This document shows positions 1-39,582 of a DNA stretch of 64,000 nucleotides, one piece after another. The stretch spans positions 768 to 64,767 of the forward strand of contig CAYIIU010000002.1 of the NCBI GenBank assembly GCA_964363635.1, in the 5' to 3' direction. Position 1 is the first letter of the stretch; each line of letters starts with the position of its first letter. The notes below the pieces were generated by a model. It had not been told where the DNA came from, searched no databases, and saw only the letters and a list, made by a program, of their open reading frames with translations. This DNA comes from an uncultured archaeon. Lineage in GTDB: Archaea; Iainarchaeota; Iainarchaeia; Iainarchaeales; VGJJ01. The position numbers were made by a program, and so were the translations under genes.

Positions 1-700
1 CTGGAGAGAGAACCCTGCCCACTTTTAGTGGGCAAATGAATCTCTCTCTTTTTTCTTCTTTGATTTTGTTTCTTTTTTGCCAAAAGAGTCTCTGATCCGG
101 CGCGACCCGTGCGGGTCGCGCCTTACAAAAGTAGTTGTATTAGCGGTCGCTTTCGCTTTTAATAGGAGGTGGTTTTGGCAGGACGCGTGATACGTTTATG
201 GTTGATTTATTCTTGTTTCATGATTGTCATTCGGTTGGCGAAGCCAACCTGCATTTGCAGTTTACTCCAAAGTATCGGAGAATGTTGTTCTCTGATGAAG
301 TTCTTCGCACCGCGTGCGAAGAACTAATGAAGGGAATCGCGAAGAGTTTGGGAGTCGGTCTGGCTGGAATTGGTTTTGGTCCGGATCACGTTCACTTGTT
401 TGTGAGTGGATGGAAGAATTATTCGATAGCCAAGCTGTCGAAACGCTTCAAGGGAAGCGTTTCCCGATTACTGAGAAAGAACTATTTTGATCGAATCAAG
501 CCTTTCCTTTGGGGAAAATCGTTCTGGACCGGAGGATATTTTTACCGCACCGTAGGTGCGGTAAACCGAGAGACCATGCTAAAGTATGTAACCGAGTCAC
601 AGTCTCATCACTGGAAAGAGCAAACCGTTTCACCCGTTAATCAGCAGACAACTCTACTCCAATATTGAGCAGGACGCTGGGGGCTTCAGCCCCCAGTAGT
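1..700 (+). mobile_element. IS200/IS605-family insertion sequence, tnpA-only. Boundaries are approximate and the left end may lie outside the window.
   Basis: A Y1/HUH transposase ORF is flanked by stem-loops and has no terminal inverted repeats. Upstream: GCCCAC-TTTTA-GTGGGC (17-33) and GGCGCGACCC-GTGC-GGGTCGCGCC (99-122). Downstream: CTGGGGGC-TTCA-GCCCCCAG (677-696). Confidence 0.6.
198..668 (+). CDS. tnpA: IS200-type Y1 (HUH) transposase TnpA
   Basis: HUH motif PDHVHLFVS, catalytic-Tyr region GGYFYRTVG, and the roughly 155 aa size typical of IS200 TnpA. Confidence 0.85.
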   Translation: MVDLFLFHDCHSVGEANLHLQFTPKYRRMLFSDEVLRTACEELMKGIAKSLGVGLAGIGFGPDHVHLFVSGWKNYSIAKLSKRFKGSVSRLLRKNYFDRIKPFLWGKSFWTGGYFYRTVGAVNRETMLKYVTESQSHHWKEQTVSPVNQQTTLLQY

Positions 701-3594: not shown

Positions 3595-3852
3595 TTGACA
3601 GGCTTTTTGCATATAGCAAATTGCCCAATAACTGTTCAAGAACAAAACCAATTTGCTATAAAAGCATGGTCTTCCCAAAGAGTTTTTTCAGAGAAACCAA
3701 ACTTTAGAAAGTTGTATCCGAGAGGAGCTTTTTGGAGCGGATACGAGCACCATCAGAGCTTCGGCGTAGACGAAGCCAAAGCACTAGCGTACATTCGTGA
3801 ACAACAAGAACACCACAGAGTAGAAATAGTAGCAGACGTACCCGCGTCATAA
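3595..3852 (+). pseudogene. Degenerate fragment of an IS200-type TnpA (C-terminal part only)
   Basis: GAFWSGYEHHQSFGVDEAKALAYIREQQEHH parallels SFWTGGYFYRTVGAVNRETMLKYVTESQSHH of TnpA at 198..668. There is no HUH region and the ORF starts on TTG. Confidence 0.5.
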
Positions 3853-3930
3853 AAAAAGGATACCGCGCGGCCCGAGAGGGCCCGCGGAGAACATGCGTGG
3901 GGTCATAGGGGCAAAGCCCCTATTGTCATT
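3853..3930 (+). mobile_element. Right-end-like terminus of the decayed IS200-type element
   Basis: GGATACC (3858-3864) is followed by the hairpin GCGCGGCCC-GAGA-GGGCCCGCG (3865-3887), then GAGAAC..., a second hairpin ATAGGGGC-AAA-GCCCCTAT (3905-3923), and TGTCATT ending at 3930. The 150-nt MITE right ends have the same GGATACC-hairpin-GGAG...TCATT architecture. Confidence 0.45.
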
Positions 3931-6919: not shown

Positions 6920-7954
6920 TTACCCGCCGTACGTCCAAATGGTATTTGTATCAATGTTCATATCGCTTCCCCGGATAGTAGTGTTGATGTCATACCCCGC
7001 GCGCGTTCCATTGGCGTCGTTGGGCATGGCATATGTGATTGAGTACGTCCAAGGGACGGTGGGTGCTCCGGAGATGGATGTGCCAAACCATTCCGGGTCA
7101 ACTGACGTATCTTCAGAAACGCCTACTTCTAGGCGCTTTACTACCGTGACTCCATTTACATCATATGAGGCGTGAATATTATATCCGCCAATATTTACCG
7201 CGTAACTTTGGTATGTGATATTATGATCGGCATTTACATCCGTGTAATTAATCGTTAAATATACGGCCGCAGGCGGCAACTGCAATATTCCAAGGTCTAC
7301 GTTTGCTGCAACCGACGTGTAGGCAAGTTCTGAATAAATATTTATAGTAATAGAAATGGGATTGAAATTTATATCTGGAGGAAACACGCGAAAACGATTG
7401 TTGTCTGTTCCTTCGCGCCATTGCAATCCGCGGTTGGTTCGTCCCCACAACTTTCCATCTGCGATGGTTTGGTTTAAATCCAAAAAAATGGATGTGTTGG
7501 TGTCTCTTCCAAAACGGAATAAATTTGTTTGATAGCGGAGGAGATTGTCTTCAGTGGAAAGAACATTCGGCCTCTTTCCTGAAAGGGTAATAATGGCCGT
7601 GCCGCTGTTCTGGTCAATGGCAATCGTTTGCCCCGTGAGGGTGTTGAAGTCAAGGGCGATGTCTCGTAACACGCGTGCGGGTGTGGAAATCTGATGAATG
7701 TCGCTCGCATCCAATTGCAGGGTTTGCAAGTGCGAGTATTGCAGCTGCGCGAAAACAACGAGAAAAATGGCAAGGGCAAATGTGGAAAAACTAAGGACAA
7801 AACCCCTCGGTTTTTTTCTAGGACTTGCCTGCCCTTGCGAAGCAACGGGCAGTCCGCCGAACGACCATCGACCTTTTAGAAAAAGGTCGATCAAAAGACC
7901 GAGGGCCCGCATGGAATCGGGCATGGATAATTTGGTCATGGAGAGCCGGGCCAT
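6920..7954 (-). CDS. Hypothetical secreted protein, possibly pilin-like (start uncertain)
   Basis: KKPRGFVLSFSTFALAIFLVVFAQLQ resembles a class III signal peptide (RG|F followed by a hydrophobic helix). It overlaps the upstream pilin-like gene by 19 nt. Confidence 0.5.
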   Translation of the reverse strand: MARLSMTKLSMPDSMRALGLLIDLFLKGRWSFGGLPVASQGQASPRKKPRGFVLSFSTFALAIFLVVFAQLQYSHLQTLQLDASDIHQISTPARVLRDIALDFNTLTGQTIAIDQNSGTAIITLSGKRPNVLSTEDNLLRYQTNLFRFGRDTNTSIFLDLNQTIADGKLWGRTNRGLQWREGTDNNRFRVFPPDINFNPISITINIYSELAYTSVAANVDLGILQLPPAAVYLTINYTDVNADHNITYQSYAVNIGGYNIHASYDVNGVTVVKRLEVGVSEDTSVDPEWFGTSISGAPTVPWTYSITYAMPNDANGTRAGYDINTTIRGSDMNIDTNTIWTYGG

Positions 7955-13997: not shown

Positions 13998-14170
13998 AGC
14001 CGAAGCACCCTTTTGGGGCTTTTAACCGTGATGCTAAAATGAGCACATATCAAATTACATTTTTCGACTATTTTCTATCCTTTTTTTCTTTTCGGGTTTC
14101 GAAAGATAATTTTCGTTTGACACAATCGGCCGGCCTAATTCTTGTTCAGTTTCTTTCCGCGCATTGCCCG

Positions 14171-15037
14171 CTATTCTGCCTCCCGTTTCGCGGCATGTTC
14201 CAATTTTGGAAATCCGCGCGCATCTTCATTCCGCGTGATTTCGGTTGTGACCCGTTCTCCCAGCATATTGAAGATGAGCTCTAAATCATTCGGCCTTTTT
14301 AGAAAAAAGGCCGGCGAAAAAGGTTGATACCTCGCCCTTTAGGGCGACCTTTGTCGCCCATTGTTTGGCGAGCGAGCGCGCGAGCAAGTGACGTTCTTGC
14401 CCATATGGATACCGTGGCCTTTAGGCCACGGAGGAAGTCATTCATGTGGTCGCGCACGTTTTCTTTTTTCAGTCCTTTGAAATCCCTGTATTCGTTGTGT
14501 GTCATCCCAAATGTCGCTTTTGAAATCTCCGCCGTGAGGATGGCGAAATCTCTTCCTTCTTCCACTCCTCGTTTTTTTCCACTCGCTGGTTAATTCATCC
14601 CGGACCACGATGCCCCTCACTCTCTTTTCGATCCAATCTTCTGAATACCCCTTTGCGCGGTACGTTTCTCGTATCCGTTTTTGGGCCAGTTCCGGATCTT
14701 CAATCTCCTGCACGCGTTCGTATCCCACTTTTGCCAGCCATCGCTTGAAGGGTTCAGCTTTGGGAGATGGAATGGATTGGATGATGCGAAACATATTCTG
14801 AGTGTTGGCACAGTCCGTTTCGTATAATTTACCATCCGAAGAGGGCAATTTCAGTTGTAAACAAAATGTTAACAACTGAGTTTCCCGTCCTTTGAGAACA
14901 CCCCAATACTGTCGCGGGGATGGGCTTTCAGTCAAAGCCTCTACTACATCTACCACCGAAAAATGCCATTCTTTGTTGTGCCAAACCCTTCGAATTTTTT
15001 TATCCTGAAAAACAACCAGTGCGCTTTCTTGAGTCAT
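14171..15037 (-). pseudogene. dinD: dinD-like (DNA-damage-inducible protein D / Bro-N domain) gene, disrupted twice
   Basis: N-terminal VVFQDKKIRRVWHNKEWHFSVVDVV...IQSIPSPKAEPFKRWLAKVGYERVQEIEDPE is DinD-like. The frame breaks at the T7/A7 run 14572-14578, and one fewer A restores EWKKRGVEEGRDFAILTAEISKATFG. A 152-nt element (14291-14442) splits DHMND|LELIFNMLGE, and the remaining ORF continues to a TAG at 14171. Confidence 0.75.
14291..14442 (+). mobile_element. MITE copy A (about 150 nt, hairpin-ended, TCATT-flanked; IS200/IS605-derived PATE-like)
   Basis: The left flank is TCATT. The element reads CGGCCTTTTTAGAAAAAAGGCCG, then GATACC-TCGCCC-TTTA-GGGCGA, then GATACC-GTGGCC-TTTA-GGCCAC-GGAGGAAGTCATT. 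Near-identical copies lie at 24584-24736 and 33000-33154. Removing the element plus one TCATT restores the dinD frame. Confidence 0.75.
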
Positions 15038-15326
15038 ACAACCACCCCGCGATCATGATATGTACTTGGTTGAAGGGAATAAAAACACGCGGAAGCCAAA
15101 CCGCCGAAAATGGGTATTACCCCTATCTGGGTCGATTTAGGCCAGTCTTTTATAAAACGCTCGAACCCCAAATGGTCTAGAAGACTAATTTAGAGCTTTG
15201 AAAAAGGGTTCCAGACCTTCAAACTTTTTAGAAAAGTTTGATCAAAAACGGTTTTGATGAACCTTCATTGCAAACCTAAAGGCTTGCGATGCCAGCAACG
15301 AAAGTTTGCTTGGTTTTCAAAAGTTT

Positions 15327-15341: not shown

Positions 15342-15419
15342 CAGTCCGGCAGCCTTTTAGGAAAAGGCTGGCGAAAACTGGGGAAAACCCCGGGGAAAAC
15401 TGTGATGCAATTGCTGAAT

Positions 15420-21456: not shown

Positions 21457-21682
21457 ATGGCCGCTAACCTGCGGCCGTGCGGAAAAATTTTGAGGGATTG
21501 TAAATCCCTCAAGAAGCTGTCCTGAATTTACGAACGAAACCTTTTTCCAGCCGTTTCTTAAACGTCTAGTGTCAATGGATAATACAAGGCCTGTTTCGGC
21601 AGGCCGCGTCGACAGACTATTATCGAGGGTTTGCCACTGCAAACCCTCATATAGGCTTTTGATCAAACTTTTGCAAAAGTTT

Positions 21683-21760
<78 letters not shown>

Positions 21761-21946: not shown

Positions 21947-22876
21947 ATGAAACGCTACTTCCTCGCGGCCGTTCTTTCCGTGCTGGCGTTCTCCACGATT
22001 GGGCCGTTTGTCAAATTGCTCTCACCGGATTTGCCGCTGCCGCTCATCACATTCGGGCGGGCATTTTTGGGATTCATTTTTGTTTTGTTGATTGTCAAAA
22101 AAGCTCACTTTCGCGTGGAAAAATTCCACTGGAACGATGTGCAGGATTATGCGTTTGTGGGATTCATGCTCGCGATGACGATGAGCTTGTACAATTATGC
22201 ATTCACCCTTTCTCCATTGGCGGATGTGGTGCTGTTGAATTATTCCCACGTGTTCATCGCACCCATCTTCGCATGGTTTTTGCTGCGGGAAAAAATGGAT
22301 GTTCACGCGTGGCTGTTTATCGCCGCGGGATTTATTGGCGTGGCGATTGTCAATCCATTTTCAGGAACGAGTTTGGATGGAAATCTTTCCGCGCTGGGGG
22401 CGGGGTTGACGTATGCTATCATGGCCGTGTACATGCGGAAAGTCGACAAGCACCACGGATTAGGGGATGTGGCGTACTTCTTAGGATTCGCTGCTCTTTT
22501 CCTATTTCCTTGGGCACTAGTTAATTTCGGCGGAACATTCACATGGGAGGGTTTGGCGCTGCTGGTTTTTGCAGGAATCGTGTCAACGGGGCTAGGATAT
22601 TTTTTCTTCAACTATGCATTGGAGGGGCTGCGCGTGCACGTGGTATCCACTCTCGATTTAGCATTGGGAACCGTGGTGGGAGTCATTTTGAGCGTGTATG
22701 CGTATCACGAGCCCCTCACTCCTAACCTCCTGCTGGGCGGCCTTATCATTGTGAGTTCGGGGCTTCTTTTTATGCGCGCTCAACACCTGTTGAACGTGCG
22801 TTTAAAACTTCCGTGGAGTAAGACTGGTATCTATGCTACTGGCTTTTTATCAAAAAAAGTTCGCCGAAAACATTAG
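21947..22876 (+). CDS. EamA/DMT-family transporter
   Basis: It is a roughly 10-TM protein with two EamA-like halves. The preferred start is MKRYFLAAVLSVLAFS at ATG 21947; the track start is GTG 21908. Confidence 0.75.
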   Translation: MKRYFLAAVLSVLAFSTIGPFVKLLSPDLPLPLITFGRAFLGFIFVLLIVKKAHFRVEKFHWNDVQDYAFVGFMLAMTMSLYNYAFTLSPLADVVLLNYSHVFIAPIFAWFLLREKMDVHAWLFIAAGFIGVAIVNPFSGTSLDGNLSALGAGLTYAIMAVYMRKVDKHHGLGDVAYFLGFAALFLFPWALVNFGGTFTWEGLALLVFAGIVSTGLGYFFFNYALEGLRVHVVSTLDLALGTVVGVILSVYAYHEPLTPNLLLGGLIIVSSGLLFMRAQHLLNVRLKLPWSKTGIYATGFLSKKVRRKH

Positions 22877-24557
22877 CCTAGCGCTCTTTGCCCTGCATGC
22901 TGCGCCGGCAGAAGAAACATTGCTTATTTCTACCATGGTTCGCCCCCCCTCCGCAGAGAAGGGAGATTTGTCCATTCCTGTTTTTAGATTCATGCCTGCG
23001 GGACAGAACCCTGCCGCATTTGCACAGGGGCTTGTGCATCACTTGAAAACGGATGATGATTTTTCCAAATTTGAATCGGTGGGGCCGTACGTGAATGCTT
23101 TTTTCAACGCGGAAACGTATGCCAAAAAAATCATCGAAAATGCCGGACAGGCTCCTGCAGTGCCGGGAAAAGACTCTCCCTTAGTGATGGTGGAGTATGC
23201 CTCTCCCAACACGAACAAACCCTTGCATGTGGGTCATTTGCGCAACCTTGCATTAGCCAAAAGCATCATTCGTTTGTTTGAACACGAAGGAAATCGTGTC
23301 GTGAAAGTGCAGGTGATTAATGATAGAGGAGTGCATATCTGCAAAAGTATGTTAGCGTACCAAAAGTGGGGACGCGGAACTACGCCTGAAAAAGAAAAGA
23401 TGAAATCCGACCATTTAGTCGGGAAGTTTTACACGGAATTCACGCTGCGTGCGGTCGTGGAACCGATGCTTGAAGACGAAGCTCAAGCCATGTTAGTCAA
23501 GTGGGAAAACGGCGATGTGGAAACGAGAAAGATTTGGCGCTTGATGAATGATTGGGCCGAAAAAGGGTTGTTTGAAACGTACGCGGCATTCGGCTCCGAA
23601 TTTGACAAAAATTATTACGAGAGCGAATTTTATTCCAAAGGAAAAGAAGTGGTGATGAAAGCGTTTGCGGAAGGAAAATTGGAAAAAGCCGAGAATGGGG
23701 CGATTATGGTTCCACTGAAGAAATACAACTTGCCGGACAAGCCCGTGATTCGCGGGGATGGAACGAGCTTGTATTTCACGCAGGATATTTACCTCGCGAT
23801 GAAGCGATTCGAAGAGTATCCTGATTTGGACCGCATCGTGTACATCGTTGCCAGCGAGCAGGAGATGCATTTTAGGCAATTGTTTGCGACGCTGGATCTT
23901 TTGGGCGTGGAGCAGGCCGAGAAGTGCTATCATTTAGGGTATAATTTACTTACGCTTCCCACCGGGAAGATGTCCTCGCGCCACGGAAATGTGGTGAACG
24001 CGGACGATTTGATGGGCGAGTTAGAAGAGCTGGCCGTGAACGAGTATGATATACGCAATCCTGAATTAGGAGATGAGGAAATTGCCCGCCGCGCCAAAGT
24101 CATTTCCCTTTCGGCGCTGAAATTTTTCCTCGTGAAGCAGGACGCGAAAAAGGAATTGATTTTTGACCCAAAAGAAAGTCTCTCGTTCGAGGGGCAGACC
24201 GGGCCGTATTTGCTGTACACGACCGCACGCATACTATCAATTTTGCGCAAATCATTGCACACACCTGATTTGTCGCTGGCAAAATTGCTCATCACCCCGC
24301 TGGAAAAAGAATTGCTTACGCTGCTTTCTCAAAAGGAAGAGATGATCGCCGATTCATTAAAGCATTATTCCCCGCACATTTTAGGACATTATCTTTTGAA
24401 TTTGGCGAACACGTTCAACACGTACTACCACGAAACCAAAATCATTCAGGAGAATGAAGACTTGGAAAAAGCCCGCCTCGCGCTGGTGAACGCCGTGCGT
24501 CAAGTGTTGGAAGAGGGGCTGTATTTGCTCGGCGTGGAAACGCTGCGCGAGATGTGA
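22833..24557 (+). CDS. argS: Arginyl-tRNA synthetase
   Basis: Class I HIGH region SPNTNKPLHVGHLRN, a KMSK-like GKMSSRHGN, and a C-terminal anticodon-binding domain ending ...LGVETLREM. Confidence 0.9.
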   Translation: MLLAFYQKKFAENISLALFALHAAPAEETLLISTMVRPPSAEKGDLSIPVFRFMPAGQNPAAFAQGLVHHLKTDDDFSKFESVGPYVNAFFNAETYAKKIIENAGQAPAVPGKDSPLVMVEYASPNTNKPLHVGHLRNLALAKSIIRLFEHEGNRVVKVQVINDRGVHICKSMLAYQKWGRGTTPEKEKMKSDHLVGKFYTEFTLRAVVEPMLEDEAQAMLVKWENGDVETRKIWRLMNDWAEKGLFETYAAFGSEFDKNYYESEFYSKGKEVVMKAFAEGKLEKAENGAIMVPLKKYNLPDKPVIRGDGTSLYFTQDIYLAMKRFEEYPDLDRIVYIVASEQEMHFRQLFATLDLLGVEQAEKCYHLGYNLLTLPTGKMSSRHGNVVNADDLMGELEELAVNEYDIRNPELGDEEIARRAKVISLSALKFFLVKQDAKKELIFDPKESLSFEGQTGPYLLYTTARILSILRKSLHTPDLSLAKLLITPLEKELLTLLSQKEEMIADSLKHYSPHILGHYLLNLANTFNTYYHETKIIQENEDLEKARLALVNAVRQVLEEGLYLLGVETLREM

Positions 24558-24583
24558 CGGTTGAAAAAGTATTATTCATTATT

Positions 24584-24736
24584 CGGGCTTTTTAGAAAAA
24601 AGCCCGGGGAAAAAGGTTAATACCTCGCCCTTTAGGGCGACATGCGTCGCCCCATTGTTTGGCGAGCGAGAACGCGAGCAAGTGACGTTCATGCACTATT
24701 GGATACCCCGGCCTTTAGGCCGGGGAGGAAGTCATT
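24584..24736 (+). mobile_element. MITE copy B
   Basis: It has the same architecture as copy A: CGGGCTTTTTAGAAAAAAGCCCG ... GATACC-TCGCCC-TTTA-GGGCGA ... GATACC-CCGGCC-TTTA-GGCCGG-GGAGGAAGTCATT. It sits between the argS stop (24557) and the stop of the convergent gene (24740). Confidence 0.75.
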
Positions 24737-24739
24737 TTT

Positions 24740-25123
24740 TTAATTTCGTAAATCATTTGCAATGGCGATGCACTTGTTGCTAACACATTGCGCCGCCGCG
24801 TTGGTTGGTTCCCCGCAATAAATCGCAAGGCAGACAATCCCTCCGTCTCTTTCGCTGACGTAACTGCAATACGTTTGTTTTTGGAATTCAAATTGCTTTG
24901 ATGCGACGCTGTTGTTCAACGCAATCATGGGGCACGAACAACAATTAGGTGTAGTAATTATTTTACAATCCGAATCAGCTTGGCAGAATGTCATTTCGGG
25001 CGTGACCACGGGCATGGTTGGTGCGGGTGACCCGCTGAAGAAAAGGAGATACCCTGCGAGGCTGACGATAACAACGGCTAAAATCATGAATGCAGGGGAA
25101 TGAACATTTTTTTGTTTTGGCAT
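24740..25123 (-). CDS. Membrane-anchored Cys-rich hypothetical protein
   Basis: An N-terminal TM helix is followed by an extracytoplasmic domain with about 10 Cys (CQADSDCKIITTPNCCSCP...). Confidence 0.55.
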   Translation of the reverse strand: MPKQKNVHSPAFMILAVVIVSLAGYLLFFSGSPAPTMPVVTPEMTFCQADSDCKIITTPNCCSCPMIALNNSVASKQFEFQKQTYCSYVSERDGGIVCLAIYCGEPTNAAAQCVSNKCIAIANDLRN

Positions 25124-32406: not shown

Positions 32407-32619
32407 ATGGTTGATACGATTACTACGAAAGCGAAGAAATGGGGCCATTCCATCAGTGTGATTGTGGATAGCAGCGTCGTCAAAAAACAAGGGATTCTCC
32501 CTATGGACCAATTGATTATAAGCGTGCAAAAAGTAGACGATATTCGTACGCTGCGCGGAACTTTTCCAAAGAAACGCTCTACTCAAGAGATTGTTGATGA
32601 GAACAAAAAGGGATGGTAA
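32407..32619 (+). CDS. vapB: AbrB/SpoVT-family antitoxin (VapB-like)
   Basis: 70 aa. KAKKWGHSISVIVDSSVVKKQGI is a swapped-hairpin AbrB-type pattern. It overlaps the downstream PIN gene by 7 nt. Confidence 0.7.
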   Translation: MVDTITTKAKKWGHSISVIVDSSVVKKQGILPMDQLIISVQKVDDIRTLRGTFPKKRSTQEIVDENKKGW

Positions 32620-32993
32620 CCATGAAATATTTCGCCGACACTTATGCGATTATCGAATATTTGAAAAATAATCCAAGATTCATTTCCTATTTTGAAAAAC
32701 ACCAAATTCTGACGACTCGCCTTAATTTGATGGAACTTTTCTATTCGTCGTTAAAAGACGCTGGAGAGGAGCTGGCGGAACGTCATTACAATAGTTTTCT
32801 TTCCCGCATAACTGAGATAACCGATCTCCAGTTCAAAGCTGCCGCCAAAATGCGCTTGCGGTACAAACAGAATAATTTATCCTATATCGATTGTTTGGGC
32901 TACTCCATTGCGCTCGATGAGAAAGCAAAATTTCTTACGGGAGACAAGGAATTTCATGAGATGAAAAATGTCGAGTGGGTCAGCGCGACCTAA
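32613..32993 (+). CDS. vapC: PIN-domain ribonuclease toxin (VapC-like)
   Basis: It has the N-terminal acidic residue in KYFADTYAIIEYL, then ...IDCLGYSIAL...FLTGDKEF, and the roughly 125-aa size typical of VapC. Confidence 0.7.
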   Translation: MVTMKYFADTYAIIEYLKNNPRFISYFEKHQILTTRLNLMELFYSSLKDAGEELAERHYNSFLSRITEITDLQFKAAAKMRLRYKQNNLSYIDCLGYSIALDEKAKFLTGDKEFHEMKNVEWVSAT

Positions 32994-32999
32994 ATCATT

Positions 33000-33154
33000 C
33001 GAACTTTTTAGAAAAAAGTTCGATCAAAAAGGTTGGATACCCCGCCCTTTAGGGCGACATGCGTCGCCCATTGTTTGGCGAGCGAGCACGCGAGCCGAGT
33101 GACGTTCTTGTACTATGTGGATACCCCGGCCTTTAGGCCGGGGAGGAGATCATT
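33000..33154 (+). mobile_element. MITE copy C
   Basis: The left flank is TCATT. The element reads CGAACTTTTTAGAAAAAAGTTCG ... GATACC-CCGCCC-TTTA-GGGCGA ... GATACC-CCGGCC-TTTA-GGCCGG-GGAGGAGATCATT. It nearly fills the gap between the vapC stop (32993) and the alaS stop (33155). Confidence 0.75.
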
Positions 33155-35887
33155 TTACAATTTCATCAGCGCGGAATCGATTCCATCGGTGCTCAACAGC
33201 TTCGCCTGTCCAACCTTTTCCGAACCGCCGCCGCTGCCTTTGGCATACGCAAGAATATTCTGAATGGCCAGTTTGGCGTTGAAAGACGAGGCTGGGCCGC
33301 TCATTGCCACGACAAACTTTGCAACATCCGAAACCAATACCACAGAAAATGTGGAATTTTGATTAACTAATAGTTGGGCAAGTTTCATTGTGTCTTCCTG
33401 TGAATAAGCGACATGGGCAATAATCTTACTGCCTTTTGCATGGCTCTTCAATTCAATTGATTTGTTTTGCAGTTCAGCTTCCATGAACATTTCAACCTGC
33501 TTGCGCAAAAGCTTATTGCTTTCCATAACATTCTGCGCAGCCTTTTCCAAATCTTGTTCTGTCGTATTGAGGATTTGAGTCACGCGCGCCAGTTTTTCTT
33601 CGCGCTCCTGCACCCACTTCAGCGCGGGCTGTCCCGTGGTGTATGTGATGCGTTCGATTCCATCTTGAATGCTTTCCACTTTCATCACCTTGAAGAAACC
33701 AATCTCTTCGGTATTATTAATATGGGTGCCGCCGCAGGCCTGGATGTCCACTCCCTCGATTTGGACGAGGCGAAGTTCTTTTCCGGGGACGAAACCCCCT
33801 TGGTAGATGCGGAAGCCATACTTCTGCTCCGCCTCCGTTCGCGAAACCGTGAATTTGTGTACGGGAATCTTTTTGCGAACGTGCTCTTCGACTAATTCTT
33901 CTATTTTTTTGATTTCCTCATCGGTGATTTTCTTGTAGTGAGTAACATCCAAGTGCGCCTTGTCGGGACTCTTCTGCGCGCCCGCTTGCCAAATGTGGTT
34001 GCCCAACACGCGGCGGCACATGGCGTTCAACAAGTGCGTCGCGGTGTGGTTGTGCATCAAGTTTGCTCGGCGTTCACGGTCGATATGGCCTTTAATTTCT
34101 TGGCTGACACTAAATTGAGTAACATCCTCAACATAGTGTAATATCCATTTTTTGCTTTTTATTACATCGATTACTGGACTGTCATTAATGGTGCCAACAT
34201 CGTGGTCTTGGCCACCACCTGTTGGATAAAATAATGTTTTGTCAAGTATAACATAGCCATCCGTTGCATTTGCAAGTGGTTTAATTATTTTCAATACTTT
34301 GGCTACAAAATTATCTGTATATAATTGGTCATAATATAGTTGTTCTGATGCTGGAATATTTTCACTTTCTGCGAGAGCCCAAAAATCAGTTTTATTCTTT
34401 TCTTTTTTCTTTTCATTCTTCACACTCACCTGATCATAGAAATCAAACACTTCTTCGACTTGGATGCCGTTTTTCTTTCCTAAATCCACGGCCATCTCAT
34501 AGGGGATTCCGTGGGACTCGTACATCATGACTAATTCCTTCTTTTCGAGCGGTTTGTTTTCGCGCTTGAGCTTGTCAATAATAATACGCATCTTTTTTTG
34601 ACCAGTTTCTTGTAATGCATTAAACTTTTTTTGTTCTTCATGCATAACATCGATGGCGGTAGGCAATCCTTCGCTCAAAGAATCGTCAAATCCTTTCAAT
34701 TCATTTACATGATCTTGCAAAATTTTATCATAGCTCAAATTGAATGCAAATTCGGAATTAAATCCGAATACGCGGCGCAAAAGAAGGCGCAAATTGTATC
34801 CTCCGCCCCCATTGGAAGGGAGCTGTCCGTCTGTGCACGTGTATAGGATTGTTTTCAAGTGGTCTGCCATCGCGTAGAGGGCTTGCAGCGAGGCGATTCG
34901 GGTGAAGAGTTCTTTCTCGTCCATTCCTAATTGTTTGGCAATCTCCCCGCGTTTCTCTTTCACCCCTTTGTCTTCCATGTTTAGTGGGCCGGATATTTTT
35001 GCGTAGCGGAGAAAGAGATCATCGTCCAAGTGCACGCCCGTGCTGCGCTTCATGTTTACCATGACTTTTCCAAACGCCGAATCATAGCTCGTGGCTTTCC
35101 CATTCGTATACCACGCTAAACGTTCAAGACCCGCTCCCATGTCAATGACTTTTGTTTTCAGTTCGCGCACGCTTCCATCGTCTAACTCTTCGTATTGCAT
35201 GAAGACGCAGTTTCCCAACTCCGCACCATTGGCCGCATATTCGATGGATGGACCAAACGTTCCGCCGCCTGCCCACACTTCTTCTTGAAACGTCAAATCT
35301 TCGGGTTTGACACCGATGATTTGGGTGAGATATTGGTAATCATGTTCAAGCGCTTCATTTTTCCAATAAAATAATCCCGTTTTTTCCGTGTTGAACGCGT
35401 GCTGGCCGAACATGGTGAAGCTCGTGTGATGGCGGCCGGTGACTCCTACATTCGCGACATCGTTGAAGCGCAAACATGCTTGGGGGACAATGAGTGGATT
35501 GGCAGGGGGCTCTACTTCCCCCGTTACAACATATGGTTGAAAATCGATTATACTTGCGTTCGTGAAATACAAGTCATCTCTCCAGCGTGAAACGACAGGA
35601 AAGCGCTTGATTTCCGTATGCGTGATGGGGGCGTTTTTGGTGAAATATTCTGACACTTTTTTCCACGTTTCAACGTAAGAATAATCATTGGTTTTTTTTC
35701 CGATAAATTCGTAGCCCATACAATCGGAATCGGCGCACGTCGTCCGTTCAAGGTTGAGCGTCCAAAAGAATCGCTTGCATGCGGCGCACGGTTTTCGCAC
35801 GAATCCTTTTTGAGTAAGCGCGTCGATTTGGTAGTGCTTCTCCCACTCGCGCGTAAATTGGGTTCTTAACGCGGTTTTATCAGCCAT
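33155..35887 (-). CDS. alaS: Alanyl-tRNA synthetase (archaeal type)
   Basis: The archaeal N-terminus is GFVRKPCAACKRFFWT...CADSDC...RFPVVSRWRDDLYFTNASIIDFQPYV...PPANPL. An editing-domain HxxxH (HNHTATHLL) and CGGTH are present. Confidence 0.92.
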   Translation of the reverse strand: MADKTALRTQFTREWEKHYQIDALTQKGFVRKPCAACKRFFWTLNLERTTCADSDCMGYEFIGKKTNDYSYVETWKKVSEYFTKNAPITHTEIKRFPVVSRWRDDLYFTNASIIDFQPYVVTGEVEPPANPLIVPQACLRFNDVANVGVTGRHHTSFTMFGQHAFNTEKTGLFYWKNEALEHDYQYLTQIIGVKPEDLTFQEEVWAGGGTFGPSIEYAANGAELGNCVFMQYEELDDGSVRELKTKVIDMGAGLERLAWYTNGKATSYDSAFGKVMVNMKRSTGVHLDDDLFLRYAKISGPLNMEDKGVKEKRGEIAKQLGMDEKELFTRIASLQALYAMADHLKTILYTCTDGQLPSNGGGGYNLRLLLRRVFGFNSEFAFNLSYDKILQDHVNELKGFDDSLSEGLPTAIDVMHEEQKKFNALQETGQKKMRIIIDKLKRENKPLEKKELVMMYESHGIPYEMAVDLGKKNGIQVEEVFDFYDQVSVKNEKKKEKNKTDFWALAESENIPASEQLYYDQLYTDNFVAKVLKIIKPLANATDGYVILDKTLFYPTGGGQDHDVGTINDSPVIDVIKSKKWILHYVEDVTQFSVSQEIKGHIDRERRANLMHNHTATHLLNAMCRRVLGNHIWQAGAQKSPDKAHLDVTHYKKITDEEIKKIEELVEEHVRKKIPVHKFTVSRTEAEQKYGFRIYQGGFVPGKELRLVQIEGVDIQACGGTHINNTEEIGFFKVMKVESIQDGIERITYTTGQPALKWVQEREEKLARVTQILNTTEQDLEKAAQNVMESNKLLRKQVEMFMEAELQNKSIELKSHAKGSKIIAHVAYSQEDTMKLAQLLVNQNSTFSVVLVSDVAKFVVAMSGPASSFNAKLAIQNILAYAKGSGGGSEKVGQAKLLSTDGIDSALMKL

Positions 35888-37441: not shown

Positions 37442-37525
37442 TGCAGGAGGGCGGATTTGAACCGCCGAAGACACTAAGTCACTGGAACCTCAATCCAGCC
37501 CGGTAGACCGCTGCGGCACTCCTGC
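37442..37525 (-). tRNA. tRNA-Leu (anticodon GAG), class II, CCA not encoded
   Basis: On the minus strand: acceptor GCAGGAG/CTCCTGC, D stem CCG/CGG, anticodon stem CTGGA/TCCAG with loop TTGAGGT, a long variable arm, T arm GGCGG-TTCAAAT-CCGCC, and discriminator A. Confidence 0.9.
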
Positions 37526-37723
37526 AAACTTTTTAAGAAAAAGTTTGATCAAAAAACCCTTGGGGGAACTCTGACTCTTTCTCTTATAGGCTAATTTCGG
37601 CTGGAATTGACATATAAATAAATCGTCTTTTTCGGGTTTTGATCAAACTTCCAAGTAAAACGAAAGGTTTTACGGGCCACGCAGAACAAGGTTCTGCTAG
37701 GTTCTCAAAAGTTTGAGCTGGAA

Positions 37724-39086: not shown

Positions 39087-39314
39087 AAATAGTTTTCATG
39101 GATTAAAGAAGTGTATGTTAAACTTTTCGAACCAAGCAAACTAAACTTTTTAGAAAAAGTTTAATCAAAAAATACCATCGGTTTGCTGGCATGACAAACT
39201 TTTGGGTTTACCATGAAGTTTGATCAACGGCCTTTTGAAAAAAGGCCGGCGAAAAACTAGGGGTTATCGTTCGCAACGATAACCCGTTTTCCGAACACCC
39301 ATATGGAATTTGGG

Positions 39315-39582
39315 CGTGTACGTCGCCGGCCGTAAGCGGCCTTCTGTTTTATCCACATTCGCCTGAGCGTCTACTGAGAGACTTGCACGCTCCCGGCGGA
39401 AGCCCGTTTCAATGCCCTGCACGCAACGTCCGTTCTTCACTTCATCCTGCGCGTGCACGCAGACCGTTTCTGTGCTTCCGCAGCCGTTTCCACGGCGTCG
39501 GGATTTTTACTGCGTGGGCCGACTTTCCTCAGCGCGGGGAATTGCACCCCGTACCGTCAGTGGACCACCGGCGACGTACAAA
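39315..39582 (-). ncRNA. rnpB: RNase P RNA (compact, type-A-like)
   Basis: On the minus strand, the P1 helix pairs GTACGTCGCCGG (5') with CCGGCGACGTAC (3'). CR-I is GAGGAAAGTCGGCC, CR-II/III-like is AGCACAGAAACGG, and CR-IV/V is AAAACAGAAGGCCGCTTACGG. A TATA-like TTAATAAA lies about 25-30 nt upstream. The ends are accurate to within a few nt. Confidence 0.8.

Follow-up and report, generated by a model that had tools for sequence, protein, structure and literature searches.

Three repeats in the window and their anatomy

A 64,000-nt stretch of contig CAYIIU010000002.1 (the window), which belongs to the 1.29-Mb, 90%-complete assembly of a tiny, uncultured groundwater archaeon of the DPANN lineage Iainarchaeota (the host genome), carries three copies, A, B, and C, of a short repeat. 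Copy A lies within a Bro-N/DinD-like gene, copy B behind argS, and copy C between a PIN-domain gene and alaS (Table 1). An archaeal RNase P RNA at 39321-39576, found by an Rfam search of the window, indicates that the host is an archaeon. The evidence given below makes it very probable that these repeats are non-autonomous derivatives, of the palindrome-associated transposable element (PATE) or, loosely, the MITE (miniature inverted-repeat transposable element) kind, of a small insertion sequence (IS) of the IS200 group (IS200/IS605 family) that carries tnpA only and occurs in DPANN archaea.

The original prediction described a three-copy family of approximately 150 nt with a nearly identical core, and this was borne out: the copies are 152 to 155 nt long and show a mean column identity of 85% with the flanks counted. 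As predicted, every copy in the window starts with a T/A-rich palindrome, N5-TTTTTAGAAAAAA-N5', whose outer arms vary yet pair (CGGCC/GGCCG, CGGGC/GCCCG, and CGAAC/GTTCG), and contains two hairpins with TTTA loops. Both hairpins had been expected to be preceded by GATACC. This holds for the second hairpin, whose prefix is GGATACC in all three copies, and for the first hairpin of copies A and C, but not for that of copy B, which is preceded by AATACC. The last five bases are TCATT in all three copies, and the left flank is TCATT in copies A and C and TTATT in copy B, in agreement with the earlier description. The CGGCC... start is not complementary to the ...GTCATT end, and the predicted absence of terminal inverted repeats was confirmed in the window copies and in the wider set of insertions. 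When folded, both strands were far more stable than shuffled sequences (z = −6.5 and −6.1).

The family as a whole has a TNATT flank, a left spacer starting with CGG, a left hairpin composed of (G/T)ATACC, a 6-bp stem, and a TTTA loop, and a core of approximately 60 nt. On the right side, GGATACC, a stem, and a TTTA loop are followed by GGAGGA-NN-TCATT. The hairpins at the two ends, (G/T)ATACC-stem-TTTA-stem, have the same orientation and lie on the same strand.

Further copies and short derivatives

Six long copies were found in the host genome, namely the three in the window and those at C3:14818-14969, C9:1556-1707, and C35:5978-6130 (C, contig). Copy A and the copy in C3 share 100% identity, and the flanks of the two are unrelated. 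The occurrence of an identical pair at separate loci indicates recent movement. In addition, three near-identical copies of 71 nt, located in C16, C4, and C34, combine the palindrome and the first hairpin's left arm with the second hairpin's right arm and the right end. A fourth copy of this type, in C22, bears a 51-nt insert within its T/A palindrome, and in a 67-nt copy located in C15, a GC palindrome substitutes for the T/A palindrome. The 71-nt and 67-nt forms are products of deletion between the two similar hairpins, which left one chimeric hairpin. By its structure, the 67-nt copy is a fusion of the left and right ends of an element of the type found in congener G001 (see below), GC palindrome included. 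The presence of the 71-nt copies at three unrelated flanks suggests that this form has moved as well. All miniature forms (152-155, 71, and 67 nt) are too short to encode a transposase.

Congeners G001, G003, G005, G007, and G008 were among the related genomes compared. At least 20 matches each, full or partial and several of them at contig ends, were found in G003, G005, and G007. Most other congeners contained none or only fragments of the palindrome, so that the distribution within the genus is patchy.

Target site and insertion sites

We surveyed the flanks of 42 distinct insertions, which represent several sub-families and DPANN genomes and were collected via the right-end pattern described below. 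The left flank consisted of T (42), N (C in 24, T in 12, G in 5, and A in 1), A (41), T (37), and T (42), that is, T-N-A-T-T, and TCATT was terminal in all 42 elements, whose ends had been collected by this pattern. The copies of the host genome, which were listed without the right-end pattern, have T[C/T]ATT on the left and end in TCATT in every case. Thus, the additional copies retained the TCATT of the original prediction and their flanks followed one rule. TCATT was found on both sides of 19 of the 42 insertions, whereas the left pentamer of the other 23 differed from TCATT. It is therefore apparent that the terminal TCATT is the element's own and that the target is not duplicated.

At its eight free positions, the stem of the right-end hairpin occurred in 22 variants, in which 3.73 of 4 pairs were kept on average compared with 2.26 for shuffled partners (maximum of 2.82 in 2000 shuffles), while GGATACC and GGAGGA..TCATT remained constant. 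Such a pattern is expected if the hairpin is read by its shape and its single-stranded flanks are recognized by their sequence. No convincing guide-to-target pairing between GGATACC and TCATT was found by inspection.

The insertion of copy A into the Bro-N/DinD-like gene can be followed in the paralogues of this gene in C4, C13, and C40 (277-366 aa; Bro-N by Pfam), which are uninterrupted and read ...TCTAA(A/G)TCATT/CATGTGG... with a single TCATT (the slash marks the element boundary here and below). At the site of copy C, the junction between the PIN-domain gene and alaS is contiguous in G008, with the two stop codons 4 nt apart and the element absent. Conversely, the host genome lacks an element at the site orthologous to that of a G005 copy. 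Together with the patchy distribution in the genus, these paralogous and orthologous differences represent insertion polymorphism, as the original prediction required. Insertions in tandem, directly behind the TCATT of another element, were found in C9 of the host genome, at L056 in G005, and at L066 and L070 in G003; they are to be expected because the right end mimics the target.

The gene split by copy A also carries a frameshift, and is thus doubly inactivated; at least three intact paralogues are present in the genome. A position of copy A between convergent genes was considered and rejected, because the plus-strand open reading frame (ORF) at 14039-14284 is antisense to the split gene.

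Full-length ISs with the same ends

When 41 related genomes were searched with Pfam Y1_Tnp, tnpA was detected in G007 (two copies) and G001. In C13 of G007, the sequence to the left of tnpA is ...TGATT/CGGGTCTTGTGGTTTTATACC-TCGGCC-TTTA-GGCCGA..., and that to the right is ...TAA-AGGGATACC-CTGGCC-TTTA-GGCCAG-GGAGGAAGTCATT/; the right end in C96 of G007 is the same. The left end in C4 of G001 is ...TAATT/CGG-CAGCCCGTTAGGGCTG-CTGTCTTGGGTTTTATACC-TCGGCC-TTTA-GGCCGA..., and its right end is as in G007. These full-length elements are 585 nt (G007:C13) and 607 nt (G001:C4) long, and the product is a Y1_Tnp protein of 139 aa (101.5 bits). Since both ends are common to the miniature copies and the tnpA-bearing elements, the miniatures share their ends with an autonomous IS200-group element. 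The comparison of the hairpins with full-length ISs thus supports the derivation originally proposed.

An exact-pattern scan for the right end, with eight stem positions left free, yielded 67 matches in 185,579 species genomes, all but one of them in archaeal metagenome-assembled genomes (MAGs). The informative labels among the matches were Iainarchaeum, Woesearchaeota, Pacearchaeota, Nanoarchaeota, and GW2011_AR10, and many other labels were uninformative or apparently wrong (uncultured archaeon, Methanosarcinales, Thaumarchaeota). The matches lay either directly behind tnpA stop codons, including those of Woesearchaeota and Nanoarchaeota MAGs, or in derivatives of 94-126 nt. The pattern was not found in the viral contigs searched. 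As regards the labels, matches L080 and L139, which share the match position and the flanks, apparently represent one 7315-nt contig that was binned as a Peribacteria bacterium in one case and as a Methanosarcinales archaeon in the other; G007 itself is labelled Thaumarchaeota, and the taxonomic labels of several IS-bearing MAGs are unreliable.

Two tnpA sequences in the window had been cited in support of the original prediction. The one at 198-668 is indeed an intact Y1 gene. It is not cognate, however: its product shows 25-28% identity with the TnpA type of G007 and G001, its flanks lack the GGATACC-hairpin-GGAGGA..TCATT ends, and the hairpins next to it have no sequence relationship to those of the element. 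As for the decayed tnpA, the sequence at 3595-3852 aligned with the C-terminal third of IS200-type TnpAs (E of approximately 3e-9 to 8e-10) and stands nearer to the cognate clade, with 31-38% identity over 52-68 aa. It is followed at 3858-3930 by a right end that terminates in TCATT, GGATACC-GCGCGGCCC-GAGA-GGGCCCGCG...TATTGTCATT. The remnant gave no Pfam match and corresponds to the parent of a second PATE family rather than to that of copies A, B, and C.

According to the paradigm of IS608 and ISDra2, a Y1 HUH TnpA supplied in trans would bind both hairpins, which face the same way on a single DNA strand, and would cut on the 3' side of the TNATT flank and of the terminal TCATT. The excised single-stranded circle would then be joined to single-stranded DNA on the 3' side of another TNATT, and the target would not be duplicated. 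The cleavage sites predicted in this way are approximately 20 nt 5' of the left hairpin and approximately 13 nt 3' of the right hairpin. In IS608, the corresponding distances are 19 and 10 nt.

The T/A palindrome is a separate module

In the original prediction, each copy begins with the T/A palindrome. It does start each copy in the window, but it proved to be a separate module that occurs in approximately 120 copies genome-wide (0 in shuffles), mostly intergenic, and is lacking in the parent IS of G007. It is placed after CGG, where the G001 element has its GC palindrome. The palindrome is an add-on that separates the true left-end hairpin from the cleavage site, and not an end structure that defines the IS. 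If the palindromes in the spacer were folded out, approximately 18-22 nt would be left between the cleavage site and the left-end hairpin, compared with 21 nt in the G007 parent.

The module consists of a variable complementary stem of 5 bp enclosing T4-6 N1-3 A4-7, with a tail, ATCAAAA or GCGAAAA, on one side. A stop codon was found within 0-27 nt of the module in 27 of 52 cases on the hairpin side, and approximately 17 of the 47 tRNA genes are abutted by a module at their 5' ends (e.g., tRNA-Arg at 21683). The association with tRNA genes was weak in congener G003, amounting to approximately 4 of 41 by eye and 2 by a strict scripted test. The closeness of the module to stop codons and tRNA 5' ends was the one conspicuous feature. 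A simple promoter and a simple terminator were both rejected, as the orientation of the module relative to neighboring protein genes is near random. The module within the elements lies behind the stop codon of the upstream gene, an arrangement shared with many solo copies. A terminator-like or insulating role is plausible. The left-end hairpin of the Salmonella IS200 is known for such a role.

A unit of approximately 50 nt with two small hairpins, CCAAGCAAAC-N4-GTTTGCTGG and CATCGTAAACC-N3-GGTTTACAATGA, was observed inside the loop of the module, always in the same position, at no fewer than eight loci, and a piece related to it lies near 39130-39230 of the window. This unit is either a tiny insert that targets palindromes or part of a larger three-way-junction structure. 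Before several tRNA genes, the T/A hairpin is preceded by a spacer, ...GACAGACTATTATCG-AGGG(N)...CCCT-CATATAGGC, which is also found after other tRNAs; this suggests repeated tRNA-spacer units.

Similarity to HgcC RNA

Nothing was detected at the element by Rfam at the gathering thresholds. Under permissive thresholds, the core and right end of most long copies matched the full 130-position model of HgcC (RF00062), an RNA family of Methanocaldococcus and Pyrococcus, with 24-34 bits. The best score was 34.0 bits and that of copy A was 23.8 bits, both below the gathering score of 50 that marks membership in the family. The alignment includes the 3' part ...CC-stem-UUUA-stem-GGAGGAGGUCA, and extends neither to the left-end hairpin nor to the T/A palindrome. 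A right-end (RE)-like tetraloop has been noted as common to HgcC, the 3' transcripts of IS1341 elements, and a PATE-derived RNA (Gomes-Filho et al. 2015, PMC4615843).

In view of its siting at stop codons and tRNA 5' ends, the T/A module could act as a terminator, a promoter, or both. It is conceivable, though rather unlikely, that the module in the long form drives or insulates transcription of the core and right end as an HgcC-like RNA, and that the long copies are more than stranded selfish DNA.

Alternative explanations

The classification as IS200/IS605-derived PATEs is borne out by the flank rule, the ends shared with tnpA-bearing ISs, and the empty sites. If the repeats were classical MITEs mobilized by a DDE transposase, TCATT would be a target-site duplication of 5 bp, which would agree with the 19 insertions that have TCATT on both sides. 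This explanation is practically untenable: the unequal flanks of the other 23, in which TCATT is always the right-hand pentamer, already contradict it, terminal inverted repeats are lacking, and the ends match those of an element with a Y1 transposase. We also weighed a system of repetitive extragenic palindromic (REP) sequences and their REP-associated tyrosine transposase (RAYT), in which the gene at 198-668 would be a domesticated transposase that maintains the hairpins. The genome does contain one intact Y1_Tnp gene and hundreds of short intergenic hairpins, and the repeats are often near stop codons. However, this gene is not flanked by the repeat and is as distant from the cognate TnpA as stated above, the hairpins adjoining it are unrelated, and G003 and G005 are rich in copies without having any Y1 gene, all of which makes such a system extremely unlikely.

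The repeats might instead be a family of HgcC-like structured small-RNA genes, spread by ordinary recombination, with the hairpins kept for the function of the RNA. Compensatory changes in all stems, the weak and consistent matches of most long copies to the whole HgcC model, the conservation of the core, and the earlier connection of HgcC with the RE-like tetraloop of IS1341 and PATE RNAs (PMC4615843) speak in its favor. On the other hand, every HgcC score is below the gathering score, a coding sequence is interrupted by a copy, and copies are stacked in tandem or contain nested inserts. Moreover, the copy number in congeners ranges from 0 to more than 20, the arrangement TNATT/...TCATT/ recurs in the 42 insertions, and the same ends bracket a transposase gene. 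We therefore regard an RNA gene family as very unlikely to explain the repeats. Transcription is compatible with mobility and could coexist with it, and is no substitute for it.

Several observations weigh against the derivation from an IS200-group element that we prefer. The 90%-complete host assembly contains no cognate tnpA: the Pfam Y1_Tnp search detected only the gene at 198-668, and tblastn of the host genome with the TnpAs of G007, G001, and G018 gave only this gene and the remnant at 3595-3852. No TnpB was detected in the host genome either. Similarly, no Y1 gene was found in G003 or G005 despite their many copies. Trans-mobilization in the host genome is thus putative; the 100%-identical pair, the empty sites, and the tandem insertions at TCATT ends bear on it indirectly, and the enzyme that would have generated the pair is not in the assembly. 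Because the cognate tnpA is missing from the assembly, the present copies are probably stranded; alternatively, the enzyme may be encoded in unassembled sequence or on another replicon. The empty sites are those of paralogues or of other species, and no precise empty site within the same species was found. Two metagenome scans, in which the flanks of copy A and those of the C3 copy were joined, gave no match, and an exact look-up of the neighboring PIN protein was also without a match. Finally, the core is conserved to the same degree as the ends in the three species compared, and it may have an additional role at the RNA level.

The orientation of the copies points in two directions. All copies on a contig tend to face the same way (3/3 in the window, and 8/8, 9/10, and 2/2 in C3, C4, and C6 of G003), a uniformity with P of approximately 2e-5 under random orientation. 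All copies in C3 of G003 lie on the minus strand at 6-281 kb; in this contig, the cumulative GC skew reaches its minimum at 340-360 kb, and orc1/cdc6 maps to 386 kb. Given an origin near orc1/cdc6, this arrangement is suggestive of an active strand on the lagging-strand template. A bias toward the lagging-strand template is established for IS608-type elements. However, the GC skew of C4 and C6 of G003 is noisy and does not track the orientation, so that the replication reading is drawn from one contig. In addition, 24 of 30 copies have a co-oriented gene on their left-end side that reads into the element (two-sided P = 0.0014). Orientation also follows the neighboring gene, and this is a confounder of the replication reading. 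On the right-end side, 17 of the 30 copies are faced by a convergent gene with its 3' end, and the called gene end overlaps the last bases of the element in at least 7; at copy A, the TGA of the convergent gene is read from the TCA of TCATT. The surviving copies usually lie just behind a stop codon. We read this bias in gene context as the survival of harmless insertions, since the terminal TCATT puts back what the TCATT of the target had supplied.

Other repeats and features of the window

A second PATE family of approximately 180 nt is represented by at least six near-identical full copies and by five copies at contig starts that end inside the right-end hairpin. It retains the last bases of tnpA (..CCGCGTCATAA) and the right end seen behind the remnant at 3595-3852. 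The C9 copy of the first family sits exactly behind a right end of the second family. The first 70 nt or so of the decayed tnpA ORF (3595-3670 in the window) are a separate repeat with the inverted repeat TATAGCAAATTG...CAATTTGCTATA, which is also found in C20 (twice), C11, and C6, and is probably another small element inserted in the tnpA remnant. Beside the intact tnpA, the minus strand at 654-1141 encodes, judging by its translation alone, a HicA/HicB-like pair, of which the HicA-like ORF shares 15 nt with the 3' end of tnpA and crosses the hairpin behind it; the IS insertion may thus have replaced the original C-terminus of the HicA-like protein.

Table 1. Positions of the repeats and associated features (window coordinates unless a contig is given)
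Feature	Position	Strand	Remarks
Copy A, long-form PATE, 152 nt	14291-14442	+	3' of TCATT (14286-14290), inside the minus-strand Bro-N/DinD-like gene
T/A palindrome CGGCC-TTTTTAGAAAAAA-GGCCG (14291-14313) and tail GCGAAAAAGG	14291-14323	+	Add-on in the left-end spacer; not in the G007 parent IS
Left-end recognition hairpin, GATACC + TCGCCC-TTTA-GGGCGA	14326-14347	+	Matches TATACC-TCGGCC-TTTA-GGCCGA of the full-length ISs in G007 and G001
Core with overlapping alternative hairpins (GGGCGAC-N4-GTCGCCC, others)	14348-14406	+	Conserved like the ends in three species
Right end, GGATACC + GTGGCC-TTTA-GGCCAC + GGAGGAAG + TCATT (cleavage end)	14407-14442	+	36 nt; also behind the tnpA stop in G007, G001, and many DPANN genomes
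Bro-N/DinD-like pseudogene	14171-15037	−	Split by copy A at ...RDHMN-D/LELIFNMLGE...; also frameshifted
Copy B, 153 nt	24584-24736	+	3' of TTATT (24579-24583); between the 3' ends of argS (22833-24557, +) and of a 127-aa ORF (24740-25123, −)
Copy C, 155 nt	33000-33154	+	3' of TCATT (32995-32999); between the stops of the PIN-domain gene (32613-32993, +) and of alaS (33155-35887, −)
Intact Y1 (IS200-like) tnpA of another lineage, non-cognate	198-668	+	Pfam Y1_Tnp, 94.6 bits; HVH motif and C-terminal Tyr
Related tnpA C-terminal remnant (3595-3852) and right end (3858-3930)	3595-3930	+	Decayed parent of the second PATE family
Second PATE family	3858-3930; C45:7400-7579, C37, C26, C20:14350-14528, C16, C6:26550-26733, C60		Also at the starts of C47, C39, C29, C44, and C13
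T/A modules	7869-7889, 15220-15240, 15350-15370, 21664-21683, 37525-37547, 39142-39163, 39228-39248		Approximately 110 further sites in the genome
Unit of approximately 50 nt	C22:8659-8709, C12:12621, C3:23080, C45:6080, C9:32819, C33:6834, C29:9126, C4:21858		The C22 unit lies in a short PATE
tRNA spacer element	approximately 21610-21663; C5:18470, C29:4800, C9:33870, C25:6726		Contig positions are in the host genome

Relation to known systems and significance

In all features of PATEs that can be judged from sequence, the repeats agree with this class. The PATEs of Haloquadratum walsbyi and other haloarchaea have no terminal inverted repeats, carry near-terminal palindromes, and do not duplicate their target (Dyall-Smith et al. 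2011, PMC3119063). Like the repeats described here, they are too short to encode a transposase and share their ends with IS200/IS605-type elements, and their 'terminal-only' versions, in which the sequence between similar palindromes is deleted, correspond to the 71-nt and 67-nt forms (PMC3119063). The SMR-A repeats that insert into Haloquadratum PATE palindromes are likewise paralleled by the 51-nt insert of the C22 copy. In contrast, the parents of the haloarchaeal PATEs are mostly of the IS1341 type with tnpB, whereas those found here are tnpA-only elements of 585-607 nt. Further differences are the DPANN host with its 1.3-Mb genome, the TNATT target, and the T/A module, found throughout the host genome, that is carried at the left end.

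With IS608 of Helicobacter pylori and ISDra2, the family has in common the Y1 HUH TnpA, present here in the parent, a pair of subterminal hairpins that face the same way on one strand, and insertion on the 3' side of a short specific sequence without duplication; the orientation bias seen within contigs is suggestive of a further parallel. It differs from them in its target, which is TNATT and not TTAC or TTGAT, in that the miniatures lack tnpA, and in that it is known from sequence. As in REP sequences, REP doublets forming hairpins (REPINs), and their RAYTs, short intergenic hairpin repeats are tied to the Y1 enzyme family; unlike in those systems, the left and right ends are distinct and identical to those of a mobile IS, and the lone Y1 gene has no copy of the repeat on either side.

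These results establish a new and well-supported family, although the kind of element is one already known, and not a new kind of system. They reveal an unannotated IS200-type lineage with several independent miniatures in ultra-small DPANN genomes (MAGs of Iainarchaeota, Woesearchaeota, Pacearchaeota, and Nanoarchaeota). Such elements break assemblies, inactivate genes, as seen here for the DinD/Bro-N paralogue, and mark recent genome change. The clean TNATT rule and the parent IS of 585-607 nt provide a compact substrate for the biochemistry of single-strand transposition in archaea. In addition, the data lend sequence-level support to the view that the Rfam HgcC RNAs are relatives of IS200/IS605 ends. 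If the long form were indeed transcribed as an HgcC-like RNA under the T/A module, the Rfam HgcC RNAs would be transcripts of IS200-type PATEs, and the T/A hairpin would represent an undescribed archaeal transcription signal that has been spread in part by these elements.

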